This document shows, piece after piece, positions 14,194 to 28,537 of a stretch of 31,570 nt of DNA; position 1 is the stretch's first letter; the number at the start of each line of letters is the position of its first letter. Under the pieces are notes generated by a model. It searched no databases. It saw nothing but the letters and a program-made list of their open reading frames with translations, and was not told where the DNA came from. A program made the translations under genes and the position numbers. The stretch comes from Promethearchaeota archaeon (lineage in GTDB: Archaea > Asgardarchaeota > Lokiarchaeia > Sigyniarchaeales > SOKP01), in contig RDOE01000040.1 of NCBI GenBank assembly GCA_011364975.1, forward strand, positions 1 to 31,570, read 5' to 3'.

Positions 14194-16182
14194 ATGATTT
14201 CGGACGTTATTGTTGAAGATAAAGAACGAGCGTTTCTATTTTGTAATGAGGCAATTGTGCGCGGAGCTCTTGAGTCCGACGTAAAAGTTGTCGCTTTTTA
14301 TCCAGGATCACCCGTTTCTGAAATATTAGACACATTTTTTCAAATTTCTGAAAAATTTGGAATAAAAATGGAGATCGCTACCAACGAGAAGGTTGCTTTA
14401 GAGATTGTAGCAGGCGCATCAATGGGTGGTCAAAGATCACTTACTGCGATGAAGAGTGTAGGATTAAATGTTGCTTCAGATACTTTTTTTAGTTTAGGAT
14501 ATACCGGTATTAACAAAGGTTGTGTTTTAGTTTTTGCAGATGATCCCTTTTGTCATTCATCTCAGAGTGAAGAAGACGGTCGGTTTTTTGCTGAAAATTC
14601 GTATATTCCTATGTTAGAACCAACTGATCCCGTTGAAGCGAAAGCAATGGTTAAGAAAGCTTTTGATCTTTCTGAAGAATACCATACTCTAATTCTAATC
14701 AGAACAACAACTCGAATCAACCATCAATCAACTATAGTGCCTTTAGAACCATTGAATCGTTCTGATTTTAAACCCCAAAGTTTTCGATCATTTAATAAAA
14801 AATATTCTACTGTCGGCGTGAGAGCTCGAGAATTAAAACTTGAAATGCTTAAAAGAAGAGAAAAGATACGAGATGAATTTGAAAATTCTGAATTTAATAA
14901 CGTGATTGAAGGTACATCAAAAATAGGGATAATAACTTCAGGAGTTTCTTACAATTATGTATTAGAAGTCAAGAATAAACTAAAAATAAACCCTCCAATC
15001 TTAAAGCTTGGAACTACATATCCTTTACCCGAAAAGTTAGTTCAAAATTTTATAAAGGAATTAAAAGCAGTCATTATTATTGAGGAATTATCACCTTATC
15101 TTGAACGAAATGTGAAAACTTTTGCCAAAGATGTCAACCCAGAATTAAAGATATATGGTAAACAATCAGACCACTTTAGTGAAGCTTTTGAATATAATGT
15201 TCCAATTGTATATAACGCCTTAAGAGATATTTTTCAGATTGAAAGGGGTAAAGATTATAATGCAATTCTAAAAAATGCAAACCAACTAAAATCCATATTA
15301 CCCACAAGAATTCCTGTGTTTTGTCCAGGGTGTCCTCATCGAGCCACGTTTTGGGCGTTTCAAAACGCTATTGGGGGAAAATCAAGTAACATCGCATTTA
15401 TCAACGATATTGGTTGTTATTCTATGCTTTTACTTAATAAAGAAATCTATTCAAAATTACATCCAGATGATTTATTACTTGCAATGGGTGCTACTTTAGG
15501 AACTGGTAGTGGAATATCATTAGCTTCTGAGGAAAAAGTAATCTCTATAATAGGTGATAGTACTTTTTTTCACGCAGGGCTCCCAGGGATAGTAAATATA
15601 TGTAATAACGATGAGAATATACTGGTTATAATACTTGATAATTCAGTTACAGCTATGACTGGTCAGCAACCAAATCCAGGAACAGGATACGGGCCAGGAA
15701 ACGCTCCCAAAAACAAAATAAAAATTGAAGAAGTATTAAATGGAATAGGGTTTAATAATATTTTCATAAATGATTGTTTTGATGCCAAAAATGCTATTAC
15801 CTCATTTAAAAAGGCAATAAGCCAATCAGGTCCGACTGTTATCATATCACGCGGACCATGTGCTCTTTGGAACGATAGAAATAAACGCAAAAGAGGAGAA
15901 AAGATACAACCTTACTTTGTAGATCAGCAAATTTGTCGAAAATGCCATACTTGTATGCGAGATTTCTATTGTCCGGCAATTAGTATGGAAGACAAGGAAA
16001 CAGAATACGTTGATGAGAATGGAAAAGAATGGAGAGGGTTTTCTTCTCATATTTCTTCAGAATTATGTGATGGTTGCGGAGTTTGCTCAATCCTATGTCC
16101 ATACACAAATCATGAAGCGCGCTCAGAAAGGGACGTCATTAGAATTTTAAATAAGCCACGGGAGGTGCGTCATGACTTATAA
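14194..16182 (+). CDS. iorA: Indolepyruvate:ferredoxin oxidoreductase alpha subunit
   Basis: NEAIVRGA, YPGSP, NEKVALE, FCPGCPH, DIGCY, TPP motif GDSTFFH..DNSVTAMTG, and a C-terminal 2x[4Fe-4S] domain (CRKCHTC..CP; CDGCGVCSILCP). Confidence 0.95.
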   Translation: MISDVIVEDKERAFLFCNEAIVRGALESDVKVVAFYPGSPVSEILDTFFQISEKFGIKMEIATNEKVALEIVAGASMGGQRSLTAMKSVGLNVASDTFFSLGYTGINKGCVLVFADDPFCHSSQSEEDGRFFAENSYIPMLEPTDPVEAKAMVKKAFDLSEEYHTLILIRTTTRINHQSTIVPLEPLNRSDFKPQSFRSFNKKYSTVGVRARELKLEMLKRREKIRDEFENSEFNNVIEGTSKIGIITSGVSYNYVLEVKNKLKINPPILKLGTTYPLPEKLVQNFIKELKAVIIIEELSPYLERNVKTFAKDVNPELKIYGKQSDHFSEAFEYNVPIVYNALRDIFQIERGKDYNAILKNANQLKSILPTRIPVFCPGCPHRATFWAFQNAIGGKSSNIAFINDIGCYSMLLLNKEIYSKLHPDDLLLAMGATLGTGSGISLASEEKVISIIGDSTFFHAGLPGIVNICNNDENILVIILDNSVTAMTGQQPNPGTGYGPGNAPKNKIKIEEVLNGIGFNNIFINDCFDAKNAITSFKKAISQSGPTVIISRGPCALWNDRNKRKRGEKIQPYFVDQQICRKCHTCMRDFYCPAISMEDKETEYVDENGKEWRGFSSHISSELCDGCGVCSILCPYTNHEARSERDVIRILNKPREVRHDL

Positions 16183-16774
16183 TATAATGACATGCGGAGT
16201 GGGAGGTCAAGGATTGATGCTTCTTTCCAATATTATAGGATTAGCTTGCGCTGAAAATAACCTAAACATAAGAACTGCAGAAACACATGGCTTAGCACAA
16301 CGTTCTGGCTCTATCTATACTCACATTCGCATAGGAGATGATGCATTTTCACCACTCATACCCTACGGTGAAGCAGATGCTCTATTAGGTATGGAAGCTA
16401 TTGAAACACTTAGATATATAGAATTTTTAAAACCAAATGGGATTATAATACTTAATAATTATATTTGGCATCCAGTTCAAAGCACCTATGAGAGAGTAAA
16501 AAACCCTCAGGGTAAATATTTAAATATCGAATCAATTATTAATAAATTAAACAAATATAGCAACCATTTATTTCTTATAAATGCACTGGATATTGCGATT
16601 GAGGCAGGAAATTCATTAACTACTAATGTTGTATTATTAGGAGCTCTTATACATACTAAAGACTTTCCTTTATCATTTAATCAGCTCGAAGAGACTTTGC
16701 CTCGAGTAGTCCCAAAAAGTGCACTAGACGTAAATAAAAAAGCACTTTTTTTGGGTTATAAATCAATTGAATAA
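16172..16774 (+). CDS. iorB: Indolepyruvate:ferredoxin oxidoreductase beta subunit
   Basis: GVGGQG, ETHGLAQRSGS, SPLIPYGEAD, NVVLLGAL. GGAGGTG RBS; overlaps the iorA end. Confidence 0.95.
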   Translation: MTYNIMTCGVGGQGLMLLSNIIGLACAENNLNIRTAETHGLAQRSGSIYTHIRIGDDAFSPLIPYGEADALLGMEAIETLRYIEFLKPNGIIILNNYIWHPVQSTYERVKNPQGKYLNIESIINKLNKYSNHLFLINALDIAIEAGNSLTTNVVLLGALIHTKDFPLSFNQLEETLPRVVPKSALDVNKKALFLGYKSIE

Positions 16775-16839
16775 AGAAGATTCAATTCTTACTTTATTTT
16801 TCAAAGATTTTTTTTAATTTCTAATATAACTTTATCTGT

Positions 16840-17667
16840 ATGACTATAAAAAAAACTGAAAGAGATGTTGTGGATTATACAGACTCTCCAATCACAATTG
16901 GGGGTTTAAAGCATGATTTTGAACAACTAAAAATTACTTCCGGTTCAGTGATAATAATGCATAGTTCGTTGAGTAAAATTGGTTGGGTGGTTGGAGGGGC
17001 TATAGCAGTGATTAAAGCCATGGTCGACATATTAACACCTGAGGGTACCTTAATTATGCCAACATTTAGTGGAGATAATTCTGAACCCTCTTACTGGCAA
17101 AATCCGCCGGTACCCCAAAAATGGTGGGAAATTGTTAGAAAAAATATGCCTGCTTACCACCCGGATATAACACCAACTCGTGGTTTAGGTATAATTCCGG
17201 AAGTATTCCGAAAATGGCCTAAGGTTATCCGAAGTGGGCATCCCAGTTTATCTTTTTCCGCATGGGGGAAATATGCTAAATATATCACTAAAAACCATGA
17301 TGTAGGTGTAGATTTAGGAGAAGATTCTCCGCTTTCCCGGATTTATTCTTTAAATGGTAAAATATTATTAATAGGCGTGACTCATGAAAATAATACATCT
17401 TTACATCTAGCTGAATATCGAAGTGATTTTCCAAATAAAGAATATCGTTTGGCAGGAGCAGCTATTCAGGGAAAACAAGGAAGAAAGTGGATTGAATGGG
17501 AAGAATTAAACATAAAAAGTGATGATTTTGAAAAATTAGGCACCGATTTTGAGGAAAAGTATAATATTCAAATGGGTAAAGTTGGTTTGGCTGATACAAG
17601 AGTTATACTCCAAAGAGAAATTGTTGATTTTGCGGAAGAGTGGTTAAAGAAAAACCGAGGTAATTAA
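16840..17667 (+). CDS. AAC(3)/YokD-family N-acyltransferase
   Basis: HSSLSKIGWVVGG, GTLIMPTF, RSGHPSLSFSAWG, GEDSPL, NTSLHLAE. Confidence 0.93.
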   Translation: MTIKKTERDVVDYTDSPITIGGLKHDFEQLKITSGSVIIMHSSLSKIGWVVGGAIAVIKAMVDILTPEGTLIMPTFSGDNSEPSYWQNPPVPQKWWEIVRKNMPAYHPDITPTRGLGIIPEVFRKWPKVIRSGHPSLSFSAWGKYAKYITKNHDVGVDLGEDSPLSRIYSLNGKILLIGVTHENNTSLHLAEYRSDFPNKEYRLAGAAIQGKQGRKWIEWEELNIKSDDFEKLGTDFEEKYNIQMGKVGLADTRVILQREIVDFAEEWLKKNRGN

Positions 17668-17694
17668 TTTAGCTTTCATTCAAGTATCCTTTAA

Positions 17695-18264
17695 TTATTC
17701 TAACTCCTTAAATTTAAGAGCAATATCTTTCCAATTATAAACTCTTATCACATTATTTTCACATATGGAATGCTGATTCCATGGTTGATCATATAGTAAG
17801 AGAGTTCTTCCTTTTAGATTTTTTATGGATTCTGCTAAATTAGGATTATCATCAATATAGATATCAAAATTTTCTCTTAATTTAATATCAGAAGGATAAT
17901 GATGTAATAATATAACCTCCTTATAATGAACCTTATGCAGAATATTATGATCTCTTAGTTTCTTCACAATTTCGTTTTGATATTCTGGTAATCTAGCTGA
18001 AACAATTGACACTTCATGACTTTTGTTTAACTTTTTTAAAATATCAGGAGCATCGCTATCAATAAAAGGAACATTACTTGAATTGGCATAAATCTCAAAA
18101 AAGATTCTAAACGCGGTTTCCTCATCTATGTTCCATTCTTTAAAAAAATCCCAGGATGTCACATCTTTTTTCTGATAATGCGTCCCATAGCGTTTATTGA
18201 AAATTTTGCAATATTCAATTATGATATCAAGTAGAACTCCATCTATATCTACAGCAACTTTCAT
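17695..18264 (-). CDS. HAD-superfamily 5'(3')-deoxyribonucleotidase (NT5C-like)
   Basis: VDIDGVL motif I, VSAR motif II, YIDDNP motif IV, and DQPWN. Confidence 0.85.
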   Translation of the reverse strand: MKVAVDIDGVLLDIIIEYCKIFNKRYGTHYQKKDVTSWDFFKEWNIDEETAFRIFFEIYANSSNVPFIDSDAPDILKKLNKSHEVSIVSARLPEYQNEIVKKLRDHNILHKVHYKEVILLHHYPSDIKLRENFDIYIDDNPNLAESIKNLKGRTLLLYDQPWNQHSICENNVIRVYNWKDIALKFKELE

Positions 18265-18481
18265 AGTGAGTAAAGGTCAATTAAATTAATTATATTTTCC
18301 AATAAAATGTTAATAAATTATTTCATTAAAACTGATTGAAATTTGTTTTATGTTAGTTGACTGAAATATTAAATAATTATTATATTGTTCAATAATATTT
18401 TAGAAACATCATTTTTGTTCAGGAATATTGTATAAACTGAAACTAAAATAATAATTAAGTGAAAAAAAGTGAAAAAAAATA

Positions 18482-18572
18482 CAATAAGATTTATAAAGCT
18501 ACAATTCTATTTATTTAGTAATAAAGTTCCCATTATTTTCCCATTCTAAAAAAATGAAGGTGATGTAAGGAA
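18482..18572 (+). promoter_or_regulatory. Orphan + strand BRE/TATA promoter followed by a hairpin (candidate sRNA)
   Basis: CAATAAGA followed by TTTATAAA (18490-18497). CATTATTTTC (18531-18540) pairs with GAAGGTGATG (18556-18565). No + strand ORF downstream. Confidence 0.3.
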
Positions 18573-18749
18573 GTAAAAATAACATAATAGTTACTAGTTT
18601 AGAAAAATTATCGCTCAAGTTATCCTAAAATACGACCCTATTAAAATTAAAATTTCTAAATACTATTTCTTTTTTTCCTCCACTTATAAATTAATCTTAG
18701 AAATTTTAATCAAATTTTATTTTTGATACTAAAATCCTCTTAAATTTCT

Positions 18750-19580
18750 CTAACTACTGTTTTTATTACAATTTTTTATTATTTTCTTAGATAAAATCAT
18801 ACTCCCTAAAGATATAGTTACTATCATCCATAAGAAATTATAACCTGAGATGACGGGATTACATTCATTATTATCGTAAATTTGGTTATTGTTCCCTAAA
18901 TCATTGATATCTCCGCCAGTGTTTTCACAAAAAGTATTCTGAAAAATAATATTGTTCTCTGAATTGCTATCTAAATAGATGGCATAATTATTATTATTTG
19001 AAACAGTATTTCCCGAAATGGTATTATTATCAGAATAGGCAAGTCTTATTCCTGTATAACCATTTAAAACATTATTTCCCGTTACTGATATATGAGACGA
19101 TTGCCATAGACTGATTCCAACTTCATTATTGGAAAAGTCACAATTACTAATTGAAATATTTTGACATTGTGATATAAATATTCCTCCAGCACTCCATGCA
19201 CCCTCTGAATTTTCTAGGGTACAATCTCTAATAATTAAATATCTATCAGTGTTTTTGATTTCAATAGCACTACCTACTCCTGCAAAAATCTCTGCTTCTA
19301 TTTCATAGCTTTCAATCACATGCGCTGTGAACCATGATAAACCATCCGTTCCATCACCAGAACAAAAAGTATCTAGAGCAACATTTCCATCAATAGAGAT
19401 GGGTGAATGTGATGTAGATAGTTTTAGGACTGATACGTTTGTAAGCGGTATATTTTCTTGAGGTTGTGATAATAGAGATATATTTAGAATTATAGTTAGG
19501 AAGAGATATATTGAAAATAAACTAATTATCTTTCTAAAAACAGCTGTATCTTTTTCAAGATTTAATATATTAAATTTCAT
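18750..19580 (-). CDS. Secreted right-handed parallel beta-helix (NosD/CASH-like) protein with a Loki-CTERM-like sorting tail
   Basis: N-terminal TM, GIxLxxSxxNxIxGNxxxNN repeats, and C-terminal ISGYNFLWMIVTISLGSMILSKKIIK. ATG at 19580 preferred over TTG at 19625. Confidence 0.85.
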   Translation of the reverse strand: MKFNILNLEKDTAVFRKIISLFSIYLFLTIILNISLLSQPQENIPLTNVSVLKLSTSHSPISIDGNVALDTFCSGDGTDGLSWFTAHVIESYEIEAEIFAGVGSAIEIKNTDRYLIIRDCTLENSEGAWSAGGIFISQCQNISISNCDFSNNEVGISLWQSSHISVTGNNVLNGYTGIRLAYSDNNTISGNTVSNNNNYAIYLDSNSENNIIFQNTFCENTGGDINDLGNNNQIYDNNECNPVISGYNFLWMIVTISLGSMILSKKIIKNCNKNSS

Positions 19581-19701
19581 TAGATTACCCAATTGAAAAA
19601 TGATGGATAATTTAACCAATGTCAAAATATAAACATAACCATATAAAATTTAGACAATGTATTACTAAAATTCTTTAAGGCTTTTTTCATAAATTTTAAG
19701 G

Positions 19702-20508
19702 ATGACTATAATTCAAAAAAGTTCAAGAAAGATAAAAGGAATCTTATCTGATTTAGATGGAACAATCTACTTTAAGGGAAAACCAATTCCAGGATCTATA
19801 GAGACTATTTTATCTTTAAATGAGAAAGGAGTAAAATTATTATTTTTTACAAACACAGATAGTAAATCACCAGGCACTATACTAAAAAACTTATATAATT
19901 ATGGCTTTAATGTCAAAAAAGAGGAGTTATTTACTCCAATTATTGCATTAAAGGAATTTTTATCTAAGAAACCTGCAAGCACTTTATTTTTAGTCACAAC
20001 AGAAGAGGTTAAGGAGGAATTTAAAAAATTTTCGATAATAACAGAATTTGAAAATTCTAAAATTCCAGATTATGTTATTATTGGAGACTTTCATGATAAT
20101 TGGGATGTAAATCAACTAAATCATGCTTTTAAATATGTAATGAAAGGAGCTAAACTGTTGGGAACACAAGGGAACAGATACTATTTGGATAAACAAGGTG
20201 AACCTGTTTTAGACACGGGTTCCTTCGTTAAAATGGTAGCCAATGCTGCCAACGTCGAACCACTAATCTTTGGGAAACCCTCGAGGGAATACTTTTTACA
20301 AGCTTTAATAAAAATTAATCTTAAAGCTGAAGAAGTGATTGTTATTGGAGATGATATTGAATCTGATATTCAAGGTGCTATAAACGCGGGTTTAAGGGGT
20401 GTTTTGGTTAGAACAGGTAAAGGGAAGTTTATAGATCTAGACGGATTGAGCATTAAACCATTTAAGATTATAGAATCATTTAATCAAATATTTAAGATTT
20501 TAAATTAA
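19702..20508 (+). CDS. HAD subfamily IIA hydrolase (LHPP/HDHD2-like)
   Basis: DLDGT, FTN, LDTGSFV, FGKPS, IGDDIESDIQGA, LVRTGK. Confidence 0.92.
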   Translation: MTIIQKSSRKIKGILSDLDGTIYFKGKPIPGSIETILSLNEKGVKLLFFTNTDSKSPGTILKNLYNYGFNVKKEELFTPIIALKEFLSKKPASTLFLVTTEEVKEEFKKFSIITEFENSKIPDYVIIGDFHDNWDVNQLNHAFKYVMKGAKLLGTQGNRYYLDKQGEPVLDTGSFVKMVANAANVEPLIFGKPSREYFLQALIKINLKAEEVIVIGDDIESDIQGAINAGLRGVLVRTGKGKFIDLDGLSIKPFKIIESFNQIFKILN

Positions 20509-20541
20509 ATCTCAATTGAGTTACCATATAAAAGAATAAAG

Positions 20542-20757
20542 TTAACGTATATAACTTTGAGATTTTTCTTCAAACGAGTTAATATATTCATTATCTCTAA
20601 AACTCTGATAAGTATCCTTTATTTCATCTAAATTAACTGTAACAAGAGTATGTTGATGATGGGATTTTTCAAAAAGATTTAATTTGGATTGGTTTAATGG
20701 ATTATTAGGATGGATTACGATATATTCCTTACATTTAATACAAGCTCGTGCTCGCAT
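20542..20757 (-). CDS. Small putative Zn-binding protein (CxxC...HxxH)
   Basis: CIKC and HHQH. GGAGGT RBS lies upstream of ATG 20757; alternative start at 20772. Confidence 0.75.
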   Translation of the reverse strand: MRARACIKCKEYIVIHPNNPLNQSKLNLFEKSHHQHTLVTVNLDEIKDTYQSFRDNEYINSFEEKSQSYIR

Positions 20758-20878
20758 AATTTTGACCTCCATAACGAGTTCTAATTTCCAAATATGATAT
20801 GGAATAAATAGTATTTCAAATTATCTTTTATTTTGTAAAGATGTTCGTGATGATGCTACATATCAATGTAATTATGAA

Positions 20879-22312
20879 TCAAACTATTTCTATTTTATTT
20901 CTTATAATTTCTTCGTCTAAGTCGCATATTTCTTTTAAACAAATGCTACAGATTGTATCTTCACTTTTTCCAATCGCGTCAATAAGTCCATTCATAGATT
21001 GATACTTTAGGCTGTCTGCGCCGATATATTTTCTCATTTCTTCGTTAAAATTATCGAAATTTTTAATTTTTGCTTCAAGCGCAATAAAAATATCCCGATT
21101 AGATAGACTATCATTTAGATCACAATTTTTTATAAGAGGTGGACAGCTGATCCTTACATGAATTAATTTGGAACCTGCATTTCTTAACATTTTTATTATC
21201 TTTTTCATAGTAACTCCACTAACGATAGAGTCATCCACCAAAACAATATCTTTATCATAAGTTATAGCCTTTATAGGATTCAATTTCTCATTAAAATCTT
21301 TTTTCAATTGCCATAAATAACGATTTTTCATCAATCCTTCTGCATAGGTTATTTTGGATTTCCAAGAATATCCCATAGCAGCACTTCTTCCAGAATCAGG
21401 GACAGGTACTACAATAGCATTTTCCGATGGTACATCATCACCTATCGCTAAATTAATTCCTAAGTTATAGCGAACTTTTCCTACAGAAATACCATCAATT
21501 ACGGAATCAGGGCGGGCAAAATAGATGTATTCATAACTACAGATACCATGTTTTAGATGAGGAATAATCTGTTCTCTTTTCAGACTTTCAGTAGGATTAA
21601 CATAAACAATTTCTCCCGGTTTCACATCATCAATTACTTTTGCTCCAATCACATCAAGAGCACATGATTCAGAAGCAAAAACATAAAAATGCTTATCTTC
21701 CCTTTCTAAGCTCCCAAAGCACAAAGGTTTATAACCAATGGAATCCCTAATAGCAAAAATGTCGCCTTTTTTTGTTAAAACTACGATACAATATGCCCCT
21801 CTAACAACTTTCATCATGTCCTTTAAAGCATCAAATATTTGATTTGTTAAATCATAAAATGCTGCTATTAGAGAAGCAAGTAATTCAATATCTGATATTC
21901 CAGTCAGCACTCTTCCCATCTTTTCTAACTTAATCTGAATTTCTGTAGGATTTGTTATTCTTCCATTTAATGCTATTGAAAATTCTATTTTATTAGATTT
22001 ATAAAGATAAGGCTGAGCATTCTCTTCATTAGAACAATATGGAGTCCCATAGCATACATGACCAATTCCAACATTTCCGATAAAATTACGTAATGTTTTT
22101 GGAGATAAGACTTTAGACACAAGACCTTTCCCTTTGTATGTATCAATAGGACCTTCACAAGAACTTATAGAGATACCAGAATAGAGTTGTCCACGATGTT
22201 GAAGCGCCATTAAACCAGAATAGATCAAACCTGCTACTGAATAACTAAAGTCTTTACTTACAATTCCAAATACTCCACAATAGTCTCGAATCTTACTACC
22301 AATATTGCACAT
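20879..22312 (-). CDS. purF: Amidophosphoribosyltransferase homolog, divergent (several active-site motifs altered)
   Basis: 11-aa propeptide then CGVFG, LQHRGQ, EYIYFARPDS, PVPDSG, VDDSIV, IGADSL and the Fe-S Cys set. Directly downstream of purL. Confidence 0.85.
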   Translation of the reverse strand: MCNIGSKIRDYCGVFGIVSKDFSYSVAGLIYSGLMALQHRGQLYSGISISSCEGPIDTYKGKGLVSKVLSPKTLRNFIGNVGIGHVCYGTPYCSNEENAQPYLYKSNKIEFSIALNGRITNPTEIQIKLEKMGRVLTGISDIELLASLIAAFYDLTNQIFDALKDMMKVVRGAYCIVVLTKKGDIFAIRDSIGYKPLCFGSLEREDKHFYVFASESCALDVIGAKVIDDVKPGEIVYVNPTESLKREQIIPHLKHGICSYEYIYFARPDSVIDGISVGKVRYNLGINLAIGDDVPSENAIVVPVPDSGRSAAMGYSWKSKITYAEGLMKNRYLWQLKKDFNEKLNPIKAITYDKDIVLVDDSIVSGVTMKKIIKMLRNAGSKLIHVRISCPPLIKNCDLNDSLSNRDIFIALEAKIKNFDNFNEEMRKYIGADSLKYQSMNGLIDAIGKSEDTICSICLKEICDLDEEIIRNKIEIV

Positions 22313-22328
22313 TAAATACTCTCTTTTT

Positions 22329-24575
22329 TTATATATCCATCATATCAGGAAGTGTTGAATCATATAATGACTTCATTTTGCTTAGATCTAATTTTATATC
22401 TTTAACTTGAAAGCCAGAGATAATTATTTCTGGTGAATCTATTATAGTTCCCAGTTGCTTTACATAAACTCCGAACTTTTCAGCAAGATTCATAACGTCA
22501 TCATGATCTGCGGGACTTATTTCGATTATGAATCTACCTACAGATTCGCTAAACAGCAACTCGTCATCTTTAAGTCTGTTTGAGTTATAATCATTTATAT
22601 TTAATCTAGCGCCCAGATTATGTTTAAAACACATTTCTGCAATCGTTATTATAAAGCCTCCTTTATCCACGTCATGATTCGATTTAATATAATTGTTCCT
22701 ATAGAGTTCAAATATATAATCCCATCTTTTTTTTATCTCTCGCTCATTAACTTTTGGAGGGATGCCTCCTTCCATATCGTAAATTACAGAGTGGTATTCT
22801 GAGCCTCCTAGTTCCGCATACGTCTCACCAATGATCAGAATTTCATTTCCTTCTTCTTTAAAAGGAAGTGTTATGATGTTTTCTTGACCAATAATAAGTC
22901 CAACAATCATAATAACAGGTGTTGCTTTTATCGCTGTTTTTTTAACCTCGTCTTCATTATAAAATGAAACATTTCCCCCAACAATCGGTATTTTTAAATC
23001 TCGACAGAAATCATTCATTCCATCGACAGATTTAGAAAAATACCAAAATGACTCTGGAATCTCTGGATTTCCAAAATTACAGCAATTTACCATAGCCATA
23101 GGTTTTGCACCATTGGAGATAATATTTCCACATTGCTCGACTAATCCTCCTTTAGAACCCTCATATGGATCCAAGAAACAATGTTTTGAATTAACCCCTA
23201 CGCTCGCAGCTATGAATTTATTTGTTCCTATTATTCTTAACACTCCAGAATCTCCTTCACCACATTTTATTACTGATCTTACCCCTACTTCATGATCATA
23301 TTGGCGATACACCCATTCTTTGCTGCAAATATTTTCAGAAGCAATTAATTTGTAAATGATCTCATCTAATGATAAAATCCTTTTTGGAGTTTTTTCAAGT
23401 AATAACTTATCTAGATATTTTGGTCGTTTTTCTTCTCTTTTGAACGTAGGAGACTCAGAAAGGGCTTTTGAAGGTATGCTTACAACCAATTCATCTCCAT
23501 CATATACTTTTAAAATTTTTGAATCGTCTGTTCTCCCAATCACGGCAAAACTCATCTCATACTTCCTAAAAACATCAAGAACCATTTCTAATCCTTCAGG
23601 TTTAACAATAAAAGTCATTCGTTCTTGTGATTCTGAAAGCATTATTTCATAAGAATTCATTCCGGGTTCCCTTGTTATAACTTTTCTTAGATCTACATCA
23701 GCACCAGTATCACCACTACCAGTCAACTCGCTTGTGGCACAGGTCAATCCACCACCACCCAAATCTTTTAAACCTCTTACATAACCCGTTTTGACAGCTT
23801 CTAACGTAGCTTCTATTATCATTTTTTTAATAAATGGATCCCCAATCTGTACTGCAGGTCTATCCGCCTCAGACATTTCTGTTAATGTACGAGATGCAAA
23901 AGTAACCCCATGTATTCCATCTCTACCAGTAGAACCACCCATCAATATAACGTAATCTCCAGGATTGTATGCTTTACTAGGAGCGTGTTGGAAATCCTCT
24001 TTCGTTCCTAAACCAATGCAGGCTACATTTACTAAACAATTACTTTCAAAGCTGTCATCGAATTCCACTTCTCCACCAATTGTAGGGATGCCTGTGCAAT
24101 TACCATAATCAGCAATACCTTTAACTACATATTTAAATAACCATTGTGAATGAGAATTATCTTTTAGGCAACCAAATCGTAAGGGGTCTAATAGCGCAAT
24201 AGGTCTAACTCCCATACATAATATATCTCTTATTATTCCACCTATACCAGTAGCGGCCCCATGATAAGGCTCGATTGCAGAGGGGTGATTATGGGATTCT
24301 ATTCTAAATGCTAGTACATATCCATCACCAATATCAATAACCCCAGCGTCTTGACCAGGACCAGCCAATACATAATCATAATTTTTTTCTGCATCCTCAA
24401 AAAATTTTAACTTCGGGCGGGAGGATTTATATGAGCAATGTTCACTCCACATTACATCAAACATGCCTAATTCTGTGACGTTTGGCTCTTTTTTTAATAA
24501 TTCTTTTACAGCTTCAAATTCATCCTTGGTCATTTCTATATTTATATCCTCTCCATTAAGTTTTACTTTAGTCAT
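22329..24575 (-). CDS. purL: FGAM synthase subunit PurL
   Basis: WSEHCSYKSS, ESHNHPS, GGSTGRDGIHG, DLGGGGL, SESQERM, NFGNP, GGNVSFYN. Confidence 0.98.
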   Translation of the reverse strand: MTKVKLNGEDINIEMTKDEFEAVKELLKKEPNVTELGMFDVMWSEHCSYKSSRPKLKFFEDAEKNYDYVLAGPGQDAGVIDIGDGYVLAFRIESHNHPSAIEPYHGAATGIGGIIRDILCMGVRPIALLDPLRFGCLKDNSHSQWLFKYVVKGIADYGNCTGIPTIGGEVEFDDSFESNCLVNVACIGLGTKEDFQHAPSKAYNPGDYVILMGGSTGRDGIHGVTFASRTLTEMSEADRPAVQIGDPFIKKMIIEATLEAVKTGYVRGLKDLGGGGLTCATSELTGSGDTGADVDLRKVITREPGMNSYEIMLSESQERMTFIVKPEGLEMVLDVFRKYEMSFAVIGRTDDSKILKVYDGDELVVSIPSKALSESPTFKREEKRPKYLDKLLLEKTPKRILSLDEIIYKLIASENICSKEWVYRQYDHEVGVRSVIKCGEGDSGVLRIIGTNKFIAASVGVNSKHCFLDPYEGSKGGLVEQCGNIISNGAKPMAMVNCCNFGNPEIPESFWYFSKSVDGMNDFCRDLKIPIVGGNVSFYNEDEVKKTAIKATPVIMIVGLIIGQENIITLPFKEEGNEILIIGETYAELGGSEYHSVIYDMEGGIPPKVNEREIKKRWDYIFELYRNNYIKSNHDVDKGGFIITIAEMCFKHNLGARLNINDYNSNRLKDDELLFSESVGRFIIEISPADHDDVMNLAEKFGVYVKQLGTIIDSPEIIISGFQVKDIKLDLSKMKSLYDSTLPDMMDI

Positions 24576-25285
24576 TATGAAGTCCTCCGTTTTATAAATT
24601 CTATCATTGAATCAAAAAACAATTTACCATGTTCCGTATAATTAGGGCTTAATATTGGTTCTGAAGCTCTTTCTGGATGTGGCATTAATCCTATACAATT
24701 TCGTTCTAAATTACAGATTCCTGCAATATTGTCCATTGAACCATTGGGATTCGCAATTGCTGTTATATTACCTTTCTCATTAGAATATTTAAAGACAATC
24801 TGATTGTTTTCCTCAAGCTCCTTTAGATTATCCGTAAAATAACGACCCTCTCCATGAGCAATCGGAATTGCGAGCACATCACCAATATTCATTTGGTTTG
24901 TAAGAGCAGTTGCATTATTTTCAACTTTAAGATTCACCCATTTGCATACAAACTTTAAGGAATCGTTTCTCAGCAAGGCACCAGGAAGAAATTGTGATTC
25001 TGTCAGAATTTGAAAACCATTACAAATACCTAGAATAGGACGTCCATCTTTCAACATAACTCTTGCCTCATCAATAGCTGGACTATGCGCTGCAATTATT
25101 CCAGCACGTAAATAATCCCCAAATGTAAATCCTCCCGGTAAAATGACTCCATCGTATTTGGATTCCTTGAAATGATTGTGCCATACTAAATCAGTTTCTA
25201 TACCTATTACATTTTTCAGTACATGTATGGCATCCAAATCACAATTAGCTCCCGGAAATTGAATAACTGCTATTTTAACACTCAT
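24575..25285 (-). CDS. purQ: FGAM synthase glutaminase subunit PurQ
   Basis: [43 protein letters not shown]. Confidence 0.98.
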
Positions 25286-25291
25286 ATTTCC

Positions 25292-25558
25292 TCAATTTCC
25301 CTTTGTTAAATTTAAAATCTTGAAATTTTGGGTGACTGGATTAAAAATGCGTAATTTATTTAATAAATCTTCAATAATTCGTCTTGCGGCATCCTCATTT
25401 TCTGCTTCTAAATTAAACCTAAGATACTGACCAGAACGAACGTTGGATACCATTTTATAACCTTTTTTGGCGAGTAGATCCCTTCTTATTGTTTCTCCAA
25501 CGGGATCTCTAGCCATTTCTTTGTTTTGAATTATAACTTCTATGTTAAAATCTCTCAT
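25292..25558 (-). CDS. purS: FGAM synthase subunit PurS
   Basis: DPVGETI, VRSG, NPV. Size is 88 aa and it precedes purQ. Confidence 0.93.
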   Translation of the reverse strand: MRDFNIEVIIQNKEMARDPVGETIRRDLLAKKGYKMVSNVRSGQYLRFNLEAENEDAARRIIEDLLNKLRIFNPVTQNFKILNLTKGN

Positions 25559-25589
25559 AATATTCTAAAAAAAGGTGTGTATTAATTTT

Positions 25590-25641
25590 AATAATTCTTA
25601 TTAATTAATAAATAATTCTTATCGACAAATATGAGTTTAAA
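25590..25641 (-). promoter_or_regulatory. Putative purSQLF promoter with a 12-bp direct repeat and an embedded palindrome
   Basis: AATAATTCTTAT at 25590-25601 and 25611-25622. TTATTAATTAATAA palindrome at 25598-25611. TTTAAA at 25636-25641. Confidence 0.35.
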
Positions 25642-25686
25642 GGCTATATTTTTTGCTAAAAAAAGTAGATTTTATGATTGAAATAA

Positions 25687-25893
25687 TCAAAGAGGAGCAT
25701 AAGCGAAACTAACAAAAACTAAAAGGAAAAGCGACAAAAAGCTTAGCAGAAAACTATATTTACCTAGTCTTGGTAGTTTCTCATCAGGAACTCTATTCTC
25801 ATTTCTCTTTTTCGAAGTCAAGTCAATAACTAACGCAATAAAACCTGCGATAAATAAACCAAATGATAAAGTCATTAATATAAAATTGAACAT
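25687..25893 (-). CDS. Small two-TM membrane protein
   Basis: Two hydrophobic helices around a basic loop (SKKRNENR). Same strand as the pur genes. ATG at 25893, TTG at 25902. Confidence 0.6.
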   Translation of the reverse strand: MFNFILMTLSFGLFIAGFIALVIDLTSKKRNENRVPDEKLPRLGKYSFLLSFLSLFLLVFVSFAYAPL

Positions 25894-25938
25894 AATAAAC
25901 AAATTACACTTAAATGTTATTTAAATCTTTCTCAAGAA

Positions 25939-26916
25939 TTATAAAAATTCAGTCCTCTTTAAATTTTCAATTATTCTTTGATGTACATCAGACACTTCTG
26001 CCTTAAATTCTTCACCAGTAATCTTTTCATAACTTCTCATGTACCTTTTTGCGAGTTCAATTTTAATGTCAGAGGAAATTGGAGGAATTGGTTGATCGGG
26101 TTTAATATTAGGAAATATATCTGGATATGTTTCCATTAACCAACCTCTAAATATTTCTTTATCTAAAATTTCTGGTTCATTCCCCTTAGAAAAATTTTCA
26201 TCATAGCTATCGAGTATCCAAAATCTTGAAGAATCTTGAGTATGAATCTCATCAATAACATAAAGCTCACTGTTTTTTATTCCAAATTCGTATTTAGTAT
26301 CAACTAAAATTAGTCCATTTTTCTGGCAAAAATCTTGGCCAAATTTAAATAACTTAAAAGCAGTCTCTTCCATTTTTTCATAGATATCTTTATCTACTAA
26401 ATTTTCCTTGATAATTTGGTCTTTAGAAATATAAATATCATGTCCACTTTCTGCTTTTGTGGAAGGTGTAAGAAGAATATCGTCGAGTTTTTGATTTTTA
26501 ATTAATCCTTTTGGTAAAGTAATTCCTGAAGTTGTTTTACCTTGCTGATAATCTCTCCAAGCTGATCCTGTTATGTATGCTCTTACAACCATTTCAATAG
26601 GGATTAATTCGCATTGTTGTACAATAGCAACGTTAGGATCTGGAATGCTTATAATATGATTTTTAGCTAAATGTTTAGTTTTATCGAACCAAAATGATGA
26701 GACTTGATTTAATAGTTGTCCTTTAAAAGGAATGGTTGTTATTACACGGTCAAAAGCAGATAGTCGGTCTGTGGCAATAATTATTCTAAAATCATTATTA
26801 ATATAATTATCTCTTACTTTTCCTTTATATAACTTACCTAAACCTGTAAAATTTGTTTCAATTAGGGTTTTATCTAATTGATTTTTGATAATCTCATCAA
26901 TATTTTCTGGAACCAT
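25939..26916 (-). CDS. purC: SAICAR synthetase (long form)
   Basis: YKGKVRD, TDRLSAFD, PFKGQ, EMVVRAYITGS, LVDTKYEFG, DEIHTQDSSRFW. ATG at 26916. Confidence 0.97.
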   Translation of the reverse strand: MVPENIDEIIKNQLDKTLIETNFTGLGKLYKGKVRDNYINNDFRIIIATDRLSAFDRVITTIPFKGQLLNQVSSFWFDKTKHLAKNHIISIPDPNVAIVQQCELIPIEMVVRAYITGSAWRDYQQGKTTSGITLPKGLIKNQKLDDILLTPSTKAESGHDIYISKDQIIKENLVDKDIYEKMEETAFKLFKFGQDFCQKNGLILVDTKYEFGIKNSELYVIDEIHTQDSSRFWILDSYDENFSKGNEPEILDKEIFRGWLMETYPDIFPNIKPDQPIPPISSDIKIELAKRYMRSYEKITGEEFKAEVSDVHQRIIENLKRTEFL

Positions 26917-27008
26917 GGTTATTATAAAAACCAACTCGCATAAAAACTCTTTTTATATAATTTATATAGTTATTATTAAACCAATAATAGCATAATCTCT
27001 TTCATAAG

Positions 27009-27377
27009 CTACTTTTTATAGAAGGATCCATCATTAAATTCTTGTGATGAATATTTTTGTCTATTCTTATTCATTTTAAGCTGAAATATATGAGTTAAAT
27101 CCATTTTTAAGCTATTAATCAAACTAATTAAATAAATAAAGACATCAGCGATTTCATCAGAGATTTTTTCTTTTAAAATTTGATCCTTTAATATATCATT
27201 AACGGAATAATCTTTAAAAAGAAAAATTTCTAATAATTCGCCAGCTTCTACGGATAGCGCTTGAGCTAGGTTATTTGGGGTATGATAATTTAACCAGTTT
27301 CTCTCTTGGACAAACTCATTAACTTCTTTTTTAAAAAATGAAATTGTTTTCTCAGAATCATTTTGATCCGAAGTCAT
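27009..27377 (-). CDS. MazG-like nucleotide pyrophosphohydrolase (DCTPP1-type)
   Basis: FVQERNW..YHTPNNL..SVEAGELLEIF..DEIADV..KMNKNRQKY. Confidence 0.92.
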   Translation of the reverse strand: MTSDQNDSEKTISFFKKEVNEFVQERNWLNYHTPNNLAQALSVEAGELLEIFLFKDYSVNDILKDQILKEKISDEIADVFIYLISLINSLKMDLTHIFQLKMNKNRQKYSSQEFNDGSFYKK

Positions 27378-27419
27378 AAGAACGAGTTATTTGAGTTTTT
27401 AGTTAATATTAGGTAATTA

Positions 27420-28256
27420 TTACTTGATACTTGTAATAAATTCAGTTATTAACTGATTAATTACATCTTTACGTTGAGCAGGAGCAAAATGACCCGCCAT
27501 ATCGATAATTTCAAGTCTTGAATTCTTTATTTTTTTATGCATCTCTTCTGACATCTGTTCTGGTGCAAAATTATCTAATCTTCCCCCTATAATCAATGTT
27601 GGACATTTGATTCCTGATGGATCATATTCTTTAATTTCATTTACCATACTAAAAATTTGTTCTTCGATAAGCATTTGAAGTTTATCTTTAGTTACTTTCA
27701 TTCCATTAATATAATCGGCTAAAGATGTAAGGATGTAGGGAATAATTCGATCAAGAATATCCTCTATTGCTTTAGCAGCTACTTCTAAAAAGTTCATGCG
27801 TATAAAGTAAGGTAAAAGATTGTAAAAGATATTTCTTATAACATTGTCAATCATTATATAACCAGAATTTAATAAAATTAAATATTTTATATTCTCGGGA
27901 TGTTTGATACAAATTAATTGCGCAATCATTCCACCAACGAGCGAATGCCCAATAATACCATACTTTTCATCTATATTTAAAAAATTAAGCAAATCTTCTA
28001 AATCTCTAATAATATCATACCTCAAATTTTTTGAAAGGTTTAATTCCTTTGGATGTTCACTCCTTCCATGTCCTAAAGCATCAAATGCAATTATTCTATA
28101 ATTTTCCCTTAGAACTTGAATCTGCCCCTTAAAAAATGATGCAGATGATGCAAAACCATGCAATAATATAATTATTCCTTCTGTTTGATCCTTTCGATCA
28201 CCGTTGATATCTTCGTAATAAAGGTTATAACCTTCTTGATTCTTAAAGAAGGGCAT
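27420..28256 (-). CDS. Alpha/beta-fold hydrolase
   Basis: LLHGF, DALGHGRS, GHSLVGG, CPTLIIGGRLD, AGH. ATG at 28256 preferred over TTG at 28337. Confidence 0.9.
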   Translation of the reverse strand: MPFFKNQEGYNLYYEDINGDRKDQTEGIIILLHGFASSASFFKGQIQVLRENYRIIAFDALGHGRSEHPKELNLSKNLRYDIIRDLEDLLNFLNIDEKYGIIGHSLVGGMIAQLICIKHPENIKYLILLNSGYIMIDNVIRNIFYNLLPYFIRMNFLEVAAKAIEDILDRIIPYILTSLADYINGMKVTKDKLQMLIEEQIFSMVNEIKEYDPSGIKCPTLIIGGRLDNFAPEQMSEEMHKKIKNSRLEIIDMAGHFAPAQRKDVINQLITEFITSIK

Positions 28257-28537
28257 GGTTATTTGATTATATTTTTGAATTATGATTTTTAAAATAAGGG
28301 TTTCCAAAAATAGTTTTCGATAATGAAAGAAATTCAACCAATTAGTCTAGTTTTGAAAAGTTTTAATAGTTAATTTAGCGGATCATTTTATTTAATGAAT
28401 TTTTTTCAATTCTCCTAAATAAAGTTCAAAATATATAATAAAAGAAATTGAAATTTATTTGTCTGAGGATTTTTTATAGATTTGATTATAAAAACTAAAT
28501 GAATAAGAAAAAAAAATTAAAATTAGTTAAAGAGATA

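Follow-up and report, generated by a model that had tools for sequence, protein, structure and literature searches.

What does a PurF protein do when residues that hold its substrates have been replaced? The question is raised by a gene in contig RDOE01000040.1 of a Promethearchaeota archaeon of the Lokiarchaeia (assembly GCA_011364975.1; its positions 1 to 31,570 were analysed and are hereafter called the window). This gene, purF-B (20879..22312, minus strand, as are all features of the window given below unless stated), lies on the same strand as purL, which ends 16 nucleotides upstream. It encodes a 477-residue paralogue of amidophosphoribosyltransferase (PurF) with an N-terminal nucleophile (Ntn) glutaminase-type domain and a type I phosphoribosyltransferase (PRTase) domain. 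The same genome encodes a canonical PurF, PurF-A, and a third paralogue, PurF-C. Judging from sequence comparisons, PurF-B is an accessory PurF paralogue that is specific to the lineage and maintained by selection. It is predicted to be incapable of the canonical coupled reaction, in which glutamine serves 5-phosphoribosyl pyrophosphate (PRPP).

Fold and motifs of PurF-B

The reading frame of purF-B has no internal stop. Residues 12–460 of the protein align to residues 1–439 of mature B. subtilis PurF (1ao0_A, E 5.8e-80), and Pfam recognizes GATase_7 (57.7 bits), GATase_6 and Pribosyltran, the latter barely over its cut-off (27.3 bits against 26.3). The AlphaFold2 model, built with a 48-row alignment of the clade, has a predicted local distance difference test score (pLDDT) of 83.7 and a predicted template modelling score (pTM) of 0.84. 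Its top Foldseek match is B. subtilis PurF 1ao0 (E 4.5e-44, TM 0.83/0.87), followed by other PurF structures. Regions of low confidence are residues 1–10, 332–334 in a shortened loop, 402–411 around a former YGID motif, and 462–477. By Pfam, by alignment with 1ao0 and by Foldseek, PurF-B thus has the Ntn glutaminase and type I PRTase architecture in the PurF fold. Its score against the NCBIfam purF equivalog TIGR01134 is 331 bits (330.7 in the genome search), under the curated cut-off of 350.

For the active sites we use E. coli numbers (Arg73, Thr76, Asn101, Gly102, Asp127, Lys326, Arg332-Phe334, Lys349, Arg371, Thr374), which are assigned by motif. At the N-terminus, an 11-residue propeptide (residues 1–11) precedes the nucleophile Cys12 (mature Cys1; 22277..22312), which aligns to residue 1 of mature B. 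subtilis PurF. Cys258 (21539..21541), at the first iron-sulfur (Fe-S) ligand position, aligns to Cys236 of that enzyme and, together with C397, C455 and C458, matches the cysteines of its [4Fe-4S] cluster, so that the four are candidate ligands in PurF-B. In the glutamine loop (residues 84–90, 22043..22063), GHVCYGT stands for the canonical GHVRYAT and the equivalents of Arg73 and Thr76 are lost. The flexible loop of the PRTase domain (KNRYLWQLKKDFNEKLN, residues 329–345, 21278..21328) is 9 residues shorter than in 1ao0_A and PurF-A and is without R-T-F. The PRPP loop (21209..21235) reads DDSIVSGVT for canonical DDSIVRGTT; DD, G and T are kept, and an invariant Ser stands where the Arg would be. 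Further on, NCDLNDS (21107..21127) replaces PC(Y/F)xGID (PCFYGID in B. subtilis), with the Fe-S Cys kept and YGID lost. Finally, the C-terminal CSIC (20921..20950) provides two of the Fe-S cysteines and is followed by a segment without the conserved Y-P.

The main features had been pointed out in the initial annotation of the gene: the three altered motifs, a flexible loop about 9 residues shorter and devoid of RTFI, the lost terminal motif, and an intact open reading frame (ORF) with an 11-residue propeptide, the nucleophile Cys and four candidate Fe-S cysteines. The ORF analysis and the alignment with 1ao0_A bear them out, and place the terminal change at Y-P, the CxxC being kept. A change from HNGN to LNGR was also listed. 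The letters are right, but the change carries no weight, since PurF-A of the same genome has FNG at this place and the Asn-Gly is retained in PurF-B.

In E. coli PurF, Arg73 and Thr76 bind 6-diazo-5-oxo-L-norleucine (DON) and hold the carboxylate of this analogue, and seven contacts are listed with the carbocyclic PRPP analogue cPRPP: Thr333, Phe334, Arg343, Arg371, Tyr258, Lys349 and Thr374 (PMC7953260, Table 3). PurF-B is missing four of the seven (Thr333, Phe334, Arg343 and Arg371) and retains equivalents of Tyr258, Lys349 and Thr374. The flexible loop closes over PRPP, and its closure creates the ammonia channel, as described in PMC7056826. With the carboxylate holders, the closing and channel-forming loop and the PRPP-loop Arg all lost, PurF-B would be unable to carry out canonical coupled synthesis of phosphoribosylamine.

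Conservation across the PurF-B clade

A collection of 5.8 billion proteins contains 55 clusters that match PurF-B with at least 512 bits, under the source names Promethearchaeota/Lokiarchaeota; the next match scores 463. The alignment comprises the window protein and 47 of the 55 clusters (n=48); we omitted P0001, which is 99% identical, and the truncated P0003, P0008, P0013, P0017, P0038, P0039 and P0049.

On the glutaminase side, Cys1 (Cys12), Gly2 (Gly13), Arg26, Gly27 and Gly102 (Gly117) are invariant in the 48 sequences, and the oxyanion-hole Asn101 (Asn116) is kept in 46. The Arg73 position never holds Arg (29 Cys, 6 Gly, 5 Ser, 4 Ala, 3 Asn, 1 Glu), the Thr76 position is variable, with Thr in 4/48, and the Asp127 position is Asp in 33/48. 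No conserved basic residue in the 48 sequences stands in for the lost Arg73, positions 90, 92 and 118 being variable.

On the PRTase side, the flexible loop (K-N-R-Y...K-L-N) measures 17–18 residues throughout the clade, 9 fewer than in PurF-A, and its R, T and F have become Q/L/K-type residues in 48/48. D360, D361, Ser365, Gly366 and Thr368 of the PRPP loop are invariant, the first T of TT being variable; as aligned, the pyrophosphate (PPi) loop and the DD..SG.T core of the PRPP loop are retained. The Gly of YGID is replaced by Asn400 in 46/48, and the four Fe-S cysteines are found in every sequence. Positions 463 and 464, Tyr and Pro in PurF-A and the outgroups, are respectively Cys in 33/48 and variable. 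Cys is also frequent at position 87 (29/48), and inspection by eye of the 14 genomic sequences showed no strict pairing between these two new cysteines.

Overall, 63 columns are conserved across the 48 PurF-B, 65 Lokiarchaeial PurF-A and 127 other PurF sequences. PurF-B deviates at only 12 columns that are conserved in PurF-A and the outgroups (87, 90, 92; 335–337; 364–365; 400, 402; 463–464), all of them within the five altered motifs, and two of these have fixed a new residue (Arg to Ser365 and Gly to Asn400). Arg73, Thr76, R-T-F and Arg371 are conserved in the 65 PurF-A and in 83–98% of the 127 other PurFs (Arg73 and Thr76 in 100% of PurF-A, and in 90% and 84% of outgroups, respectively), and this set is lost in 48/48 PurF-B, the four Thr at the Thr76 position notwithstanding. 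The losses are targeted and far from random: they strike the residues that hold glutamine, the loop that closes over PRPP, the Arg of the PRPP loop and two motifs adjacent to the cluster cysteines, with the rest spared. The proposal that both substrate sites have been eroded on a retained scaffold needs a qualification here, since the PRPP loop keeps an invariant core and is better described as altered than as eroded.

Origin, distribution and selection

A tree of 14 PurF-B, 26 PurF-A and 20 outgroup sequences was computed with an IQ-TREE quick search, with supports from the Shimodaira–Hasegawa-like approximate likelihood ratio test (SH-aLRT) only. PurF-B is monophyletic (SH-aLRT 100) on a stem branch of 0.63, and its sister group is Lokiarchaeial PurF-A plus P0121 (SH-aLRT 99). 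Members of the clade share 51–63% identity; PurF-B of the window shares 47% identity with PurF-A and 30% with PurF-C. In the ten genomes with both copies (45 pairs), PurF-B distances are a median 2.8 times those of PurF-A (range 1.6–5.2), and the subtree over these genomes is 7.98 long for PurF-B and 3.16 for PurF-A.

Among the 61 genomes of the window's family, 14 (the window's and 13 others) have PurF-B-type matches of at least 512 bits (51–62% identity in the 13 others), and 47 have none; PurF-A-type matches reach 448.5 bits at most. A sample of the phylum (301 genomes of 30 families, E <=1e-135) gave matches restricted to the window's family, in 10 of its 69 genomes (the window's and 9 of 68 others), one of which looks A-type (454.9 bits, 523-residue frame). 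At this threshold none of the 232 genomes of the 29 other families matched. The frame is open in 14/14 genomes, two reported internal stops falling outside the 461- and 472-residue frames used. On this phylogeny and distribution, PurF-B is a family-level invention that arose by duplication of the lineage's own purF. Its tree is broadly congruent with that of PurF-A, which in an informal comparison favours repeated loss of PurF-B, and its presence in only 14 of 61 genomes suits an accessory role.

The gene lies immediately downstream of purL, on the same strand, in 14/14 genomes. At 17 PurF-A loci, by contrast, the surrounding ±1.5 kb contained no purL; in 8 of the 17, PurF-C adjoins PurF-A. 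Where PurF-B is lacking, tblastn (E 1e-5) at 24 loci, one of them ending at purL, found no purF-B remnants past purL, and in 15 of the 24 a homologue of a small CxxC ORF follows purL directly on the same strand. The absence of remnants indicates that presence or absence of purF-B is a clean insertion or deletion between purL and the CxxC ORF.

Selection was measured against metagenome contig L044, which is 97.3% identical to the window over 13.4 kb and colinear with positions 14874-28312; 11 of 12 genes could be computed. For purF-B, 34.5 synonymous and 10.5 non-synonymous differences give a synonymous rate (dS) of 0.125, a non-synonymous rate (dN) of 0.0093 and a ratio (omega) of 0.075. The corresponding omega is 0.081 for purC, 0.183 for purL, 0.191 for a HAD gene and 0.44 for purQ. 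PurF-B is under strong purifying selection. Strain-specific decay is thereby ruled out, by this ratio together with the conservation of the same substitutions in all 48 aligned members.

PurF-A and PurF-C in the same genome

The assembly from which the window comes (3.74 Mb in 200 contigs; completeness 99.25%, contamination 6.09%) contains four TIGR01134 matches: PurF-A, PurF-B, PurF-C and a weak N-terminal match on contig C126 (97.4 bits). PurF-A (G000:C161:7903-9315) scores 437.5–437.7 bits (437.7 in the genome search), over the 350 cut-off. Its 534-residue ORF (L001:1369-2973) has all canonical motifs, namely GH-N-R-Y, the complete K-N-R-Y-V-W-R-T-F loop, DDSIVRGTT, C-Y-M-G-I-D and C-x-x-C-L-T-G-E-Y-P. 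The G+C content of its contig C161 is 0.316, against 0.317 for the window. A full-length second copy is carried by 10 of the 14 PurF-B genomes, and it is PurF-A in each, with GH.RY and CYMGID in all ten and R-G-T-T observed directly in seven of them. In the other four (78–91% complete), only partial second PurF-like pieces are found, at contig ends. PurF-A is presumably the housekeeping amidophosphoribosyltransferase of the genome.

The initial annotation had taken PurF-B for a repurposed paralogue or pseudoenzyme had suggested looking for a second, canonical purF and computing dN/dS across orthologues, and had taken substitutions confined to this strain as a sign of simple decay. These checks came out in favour of that view, with PurF-A found, the pattern shared by all aligned clade members and omega low, and as far as computation reaches it is supported.

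PurF-C (466 residues; L001:2975-4375, minus strand) is a third paralogue on C161 that adjoins PurF-A convergently and scores 177.8 bits with TIGR01134. It starts M-G-G-L-F-G, has neither the nucleophile Cys nor the Arg73 segment, and keeps a complete flexible loop and DDSIVRGTQ. PurF-C occurs in 31 of the 61 family genomes at 72–80% identity and is better conserved than PurF-A or PurF-B. It is present in 3 of 14 genomes with PurF-B versus 28 of the 47 others. We considered that PurF-B and PurF-C might be mutually exclusive alternatives and rejected the idea, as the trend is without statistical weight: the genomes compared share ancestry, and 19 of them encode neither protein. In genus g8 (e.g. 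G008:C15:64647-68859), purL, PurF-C and PurF-A form one same-strand row. PurF-A of this genus is divergent and is without two short insertions of other PurF-A, which PurF-B also lacks.

Predicted assembly of PurF-B

A complex model of PurF-A (45–515) with PurF-B (12–461) scored 0.81, and the best of three controls 0.00. Of 157 solved complexes, 116 come up to this mark; of 215 mismatched pairs, 2 do. Across runs, contact agreement was at least 86% and partner pLDDT at least 85. The heteromer put forward in the initial annotation therefore passes as a model. However, solved PurF homotetramers exist, and the pass shows likeness to a PurF-type interface, not binding of PurF-A to PurF-B. In these terms, what the model shows is that the PRTase domain of PurF-B has retained an interface of the PurF type. 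At the predicted interface positions, the PurF-B consensus equals that of PurF-A in 35 of 44 cases, compared with 218 of 406 elsewhere. Conserved residues specific to PurF-B at the predicted interface are Met35, Tyr282, Met313 and Trp317.

Possible roles of PurF-B

We lean, tentatively and at somewhat short of an even chance, towards PurF-B being a ligand-binding, Fe-S-containing partner or regulatory subunit that is co-expressed with purCSQL and assembles via the conserved interface. On this view, PurF-B would still bind a ligand with a 5-phosphoribosyl group, either PRPP or a purine nucleotide, and the PRTase-domain interface would join it to a second PurF-B or to PurF-A. As a regulatory or sensing partner it could tune how much enters the pathway, in step with the expression of purCSQL. 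Paralogues without catalytic activity take on regulatory tasks in the pathways of nucleotides and amino acids, as seen with HisZ, the partner of HisG, and with the PRT-domain regulators PurR and PyrR. The likeness of PurF-B to these proteins is one of concept only, in that ligand binding and assembly would be kept and the parent reaction would not. There is no sequence relationship; PurF-B is without a domain for binding DNA or RNA, and its nucleophile is kept.

Several observations weigh against a regulatory or partner role. The invariance of Cys1-Gly2, Arg26-Gly27 and Gly102, with Asn101 in 46/48, is unexpected for a purely non-catalytic subunit, and the retention of glutaminase catalytic residues argues against a purely inert scaffold; Cys-less PurF-C illustrates what loss of the glutaminase looks like. 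The newly conserved Ser365 and Asn400 look more like a changed than a lost specificity. In addition, the complex model tells a heteromer and a homomer of PurF-B with itself not apart, and since the interface positions overlap the active site, the PPi loop and 'A-R-P-D-S', ligand binding could explain their conservation equally well. Lastly, RNA evidence for purF-B is weak, consisting of one 327-nucleotide contig (3 differences) in one RNA library that possibly contains DNA. For purL, one 214-nucleotide contig within the gene comes from another study, and the uncovered parts are uninformative.

The same residues bring in a different explanation, which we regard as possible though rather unlikely: PurF-B would be a neofunctionalised enzyme. 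Its Ntn domain would hydrolyse an amide other than the normally bound free L-glutamine, its PRTase domain would act on or hold a different 5-phosphoribosyl compound, or both, in a new purine-linked reaction. The invariant nucleophile with its oxyanion hole and the two new PRTase-site residues (Ser365 in 48/48, Asn400 in 46/48) make this a serious rival. On the glutaminase side the losses are confined to the substrate-holding Arg73 and Thr76, with a relaxed Asp127 (33/48), and the omega of 0.075 and the constant linkage to purL count in favour of an enzyme. However, there is no candidate substrate, and the glutamine site has acquired no compensating conserved basic residue at 90, 92 or 118. All 48 sequences have lost the channel-forming loop by which the PRTase site is closed, four of seven cPRPP contacts are missing, and most relatives do without the gene (no match in 47 of 61 genomes).

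It is improbable that PurF-B is a divergent but working amidophosphoribosyltransferase isozyme, for example a low-affinity or ammonia-dependent one that acts conditionally and is co-expressed with purCSQL. The gene occupies the classical purF place past purL, and Cys1, the oxyanion hole, the PPi loop, DD and T of the PRPP loop, the Tyr258 and Lys349 equivalents and the Fe-S cysteines are all kept. Moreover, a glutamine-independent, ammonia-dependent PurF activity is known in E. coli Cys1 mutants and has been proposed for the crenarchaeal protein PurF' (PMC3261824). Yet an ammonia-only enzyme would not need an invariant Cys1. Arg73, Thr76, R-T-F and Arg371, lost in 48/48, are widely conserved elsewhere, the equivalog score is 331 against 350 bits, and a canonical PurF-A accompanies PurF-B in 10/10 genomes with a full-length second copy.

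A gene decaying towards a pseudogene, or a second purF brought in by faulty binning, is practically excluded: the absence from most relatives, the 2.8-fold faster evolution than PurF-A and the estimated contamination of 6.09% would fit, but the frame is open in 14/14 genomes, omega is as low as that of purC, the same changes and newly invariant residues recur in 48 sequences, PurF-A and PurF-B co-occur in ten genomes and the two contigs have equal G+C.

Returning to PurF-B as a partner or regulatory subunit, a bolder version, which we consider doubtful, makes it the first PurF-derived regulatory pseudo-subunit. Such an Fe-S protein would bind PRPP or nucleotides, form mixed tetramers with PurF-A in the manner of HisZ and HisG, and add an operon-coupled, possibly redox-sensitive control of purine entry in some Asgard archaea. 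An equally bold and equally doubtful version has the intact Cys1 at work on a phosphoribosyl compound, in a new reaction of the amidohydrolase or amidotransferase type. If PurF-B is a regulatory partner, PurF would be one of the few enzymes under the control of an inactive paralogue of their own; should PurF-B be an enzyme instead, new Ntn/PRTase chemistry would be at hand. Confirmation of either the partner-subunit or the new-chemistry reading would raise the significance of the finding.

Relation to known PurF variants

PurF-B shares with canonical Fe-S PurF (B. subtilis 1ao0/1gph, Arabidopsis 6lbp; TIGR01134) the two-domain fold, the propeptide with Cys1, the Asn-Gly, the cluster cysteines, the PPi loop, and DD and T of the PRPP loop. 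It differs in scoring below the equivalog cut-off and in lacking Arg73/Thr76, 9 loop residues, the PRPP-loop Arg, YGID and Y-P.

Duplicated archaeal purF genes have been noted before without explanation in the archaeal purine review PMC3261824, where PurF' of Crenarchaeota is presented as a second paralogue beside the true purF, near purine genes, of unexplained function and defined by loss of the N-terminal Cys. Like PurF', PurF-B is an extra PurF-like paralogue that is kept beside the true purF, near purine genes, in archaea. Unlike PurF', as characterized there, it keeps the N-terminal Cys in 48/48 sequences and so lacks the defining feature. It is PurF-C that fits PurF' by its Cys-less start, and the likeness is drawn on that feature alone. 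On this description, degeneration is roughly complementary, with PurF' having lost the glutaminase, and PurF-B the PRTase loop and the holding of glutamine. The same review reports Mlab_0150 of Methanocorpusculum labreanum, a recent purF duplicate with its active-site Cys changed to Ser, which is suspected not to be the true enzyme. PurF-B resembles it as a lineage-specific purF duplicate but, from what is reported there, differs in belonging to an older clade (stem 0.63, 51–63% identity) and in having its Cys intact.

Full-text literature searches, and the available part of PMC3261824, whose Additional Files 1-2 might list such genes, gave no description of a Cys-retaining, loop-deleted PurF paralogue. 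PurF-B is a second, clean kind of PurF paralogue, its degeneration roughly complementary to that of Cys-less PurF'. Three forms coexist in one genome: canonical PurF, one whose glutaminase is dead and one that has no PRTase loop. This amounts to a natural dissection of the half-reactions and their coupling. In public records, PurF-B genes are named 'amidophosphoribosyltransferase', so that reconstructions of Lokiarchaeial metabolism may count the first purine step too often or assign it to the wrong gene.

The purine gene row and its neighbourhood

The row that contains purF-B begins with purC (25939..26934; Pfam SAICAR_synt, 222.5 bits), followed by a hydrophobic 71-residue ORF without a Pfam family (25687-25902). 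Next come purS (25292..25558; Pfam PurS, 62 bits), purQ (24575..25285; Pfam GATase_5, 145 bits) and purL (22329..24575; Pfam AIRS, AIRS_C and FGAR-AT linker). The place of purF past purL is also that in the B. subtilis operon. The last gene of the row, after purF-B, is the conserved CxxC ORF (20542..20772), which encodes 76 residues with several His; its best Pfam match, DUF3364, scores 21.5 bits against a cut-off of 27.4.

Elsewhere in the genome, purD (419 bits) and purE (153 bits) were found. The purE match, on contig C190 (153.3 bits), has two stop codons within the matched stretch. No purM match exceeds the TIGR00878 cut-off in this assembly, the best scoring 95.2 bits against 236.35 (C158:20699-21712).

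One contig from DNA run X3 connects position 21204 of the window with 25340 and leaves out 4135 bases. At the junction stand 20 other letters, and its shorter side measures only 23; the contig is probably chimeric or foreign. Further along the window, on the plus strand (16840-17667), a 275-residue ORF matches Pfam Antibiotic_NAT, the aminoglycoside 3-N-acetyltransferase family, with 297.7 bits, here in an archaeal genome.

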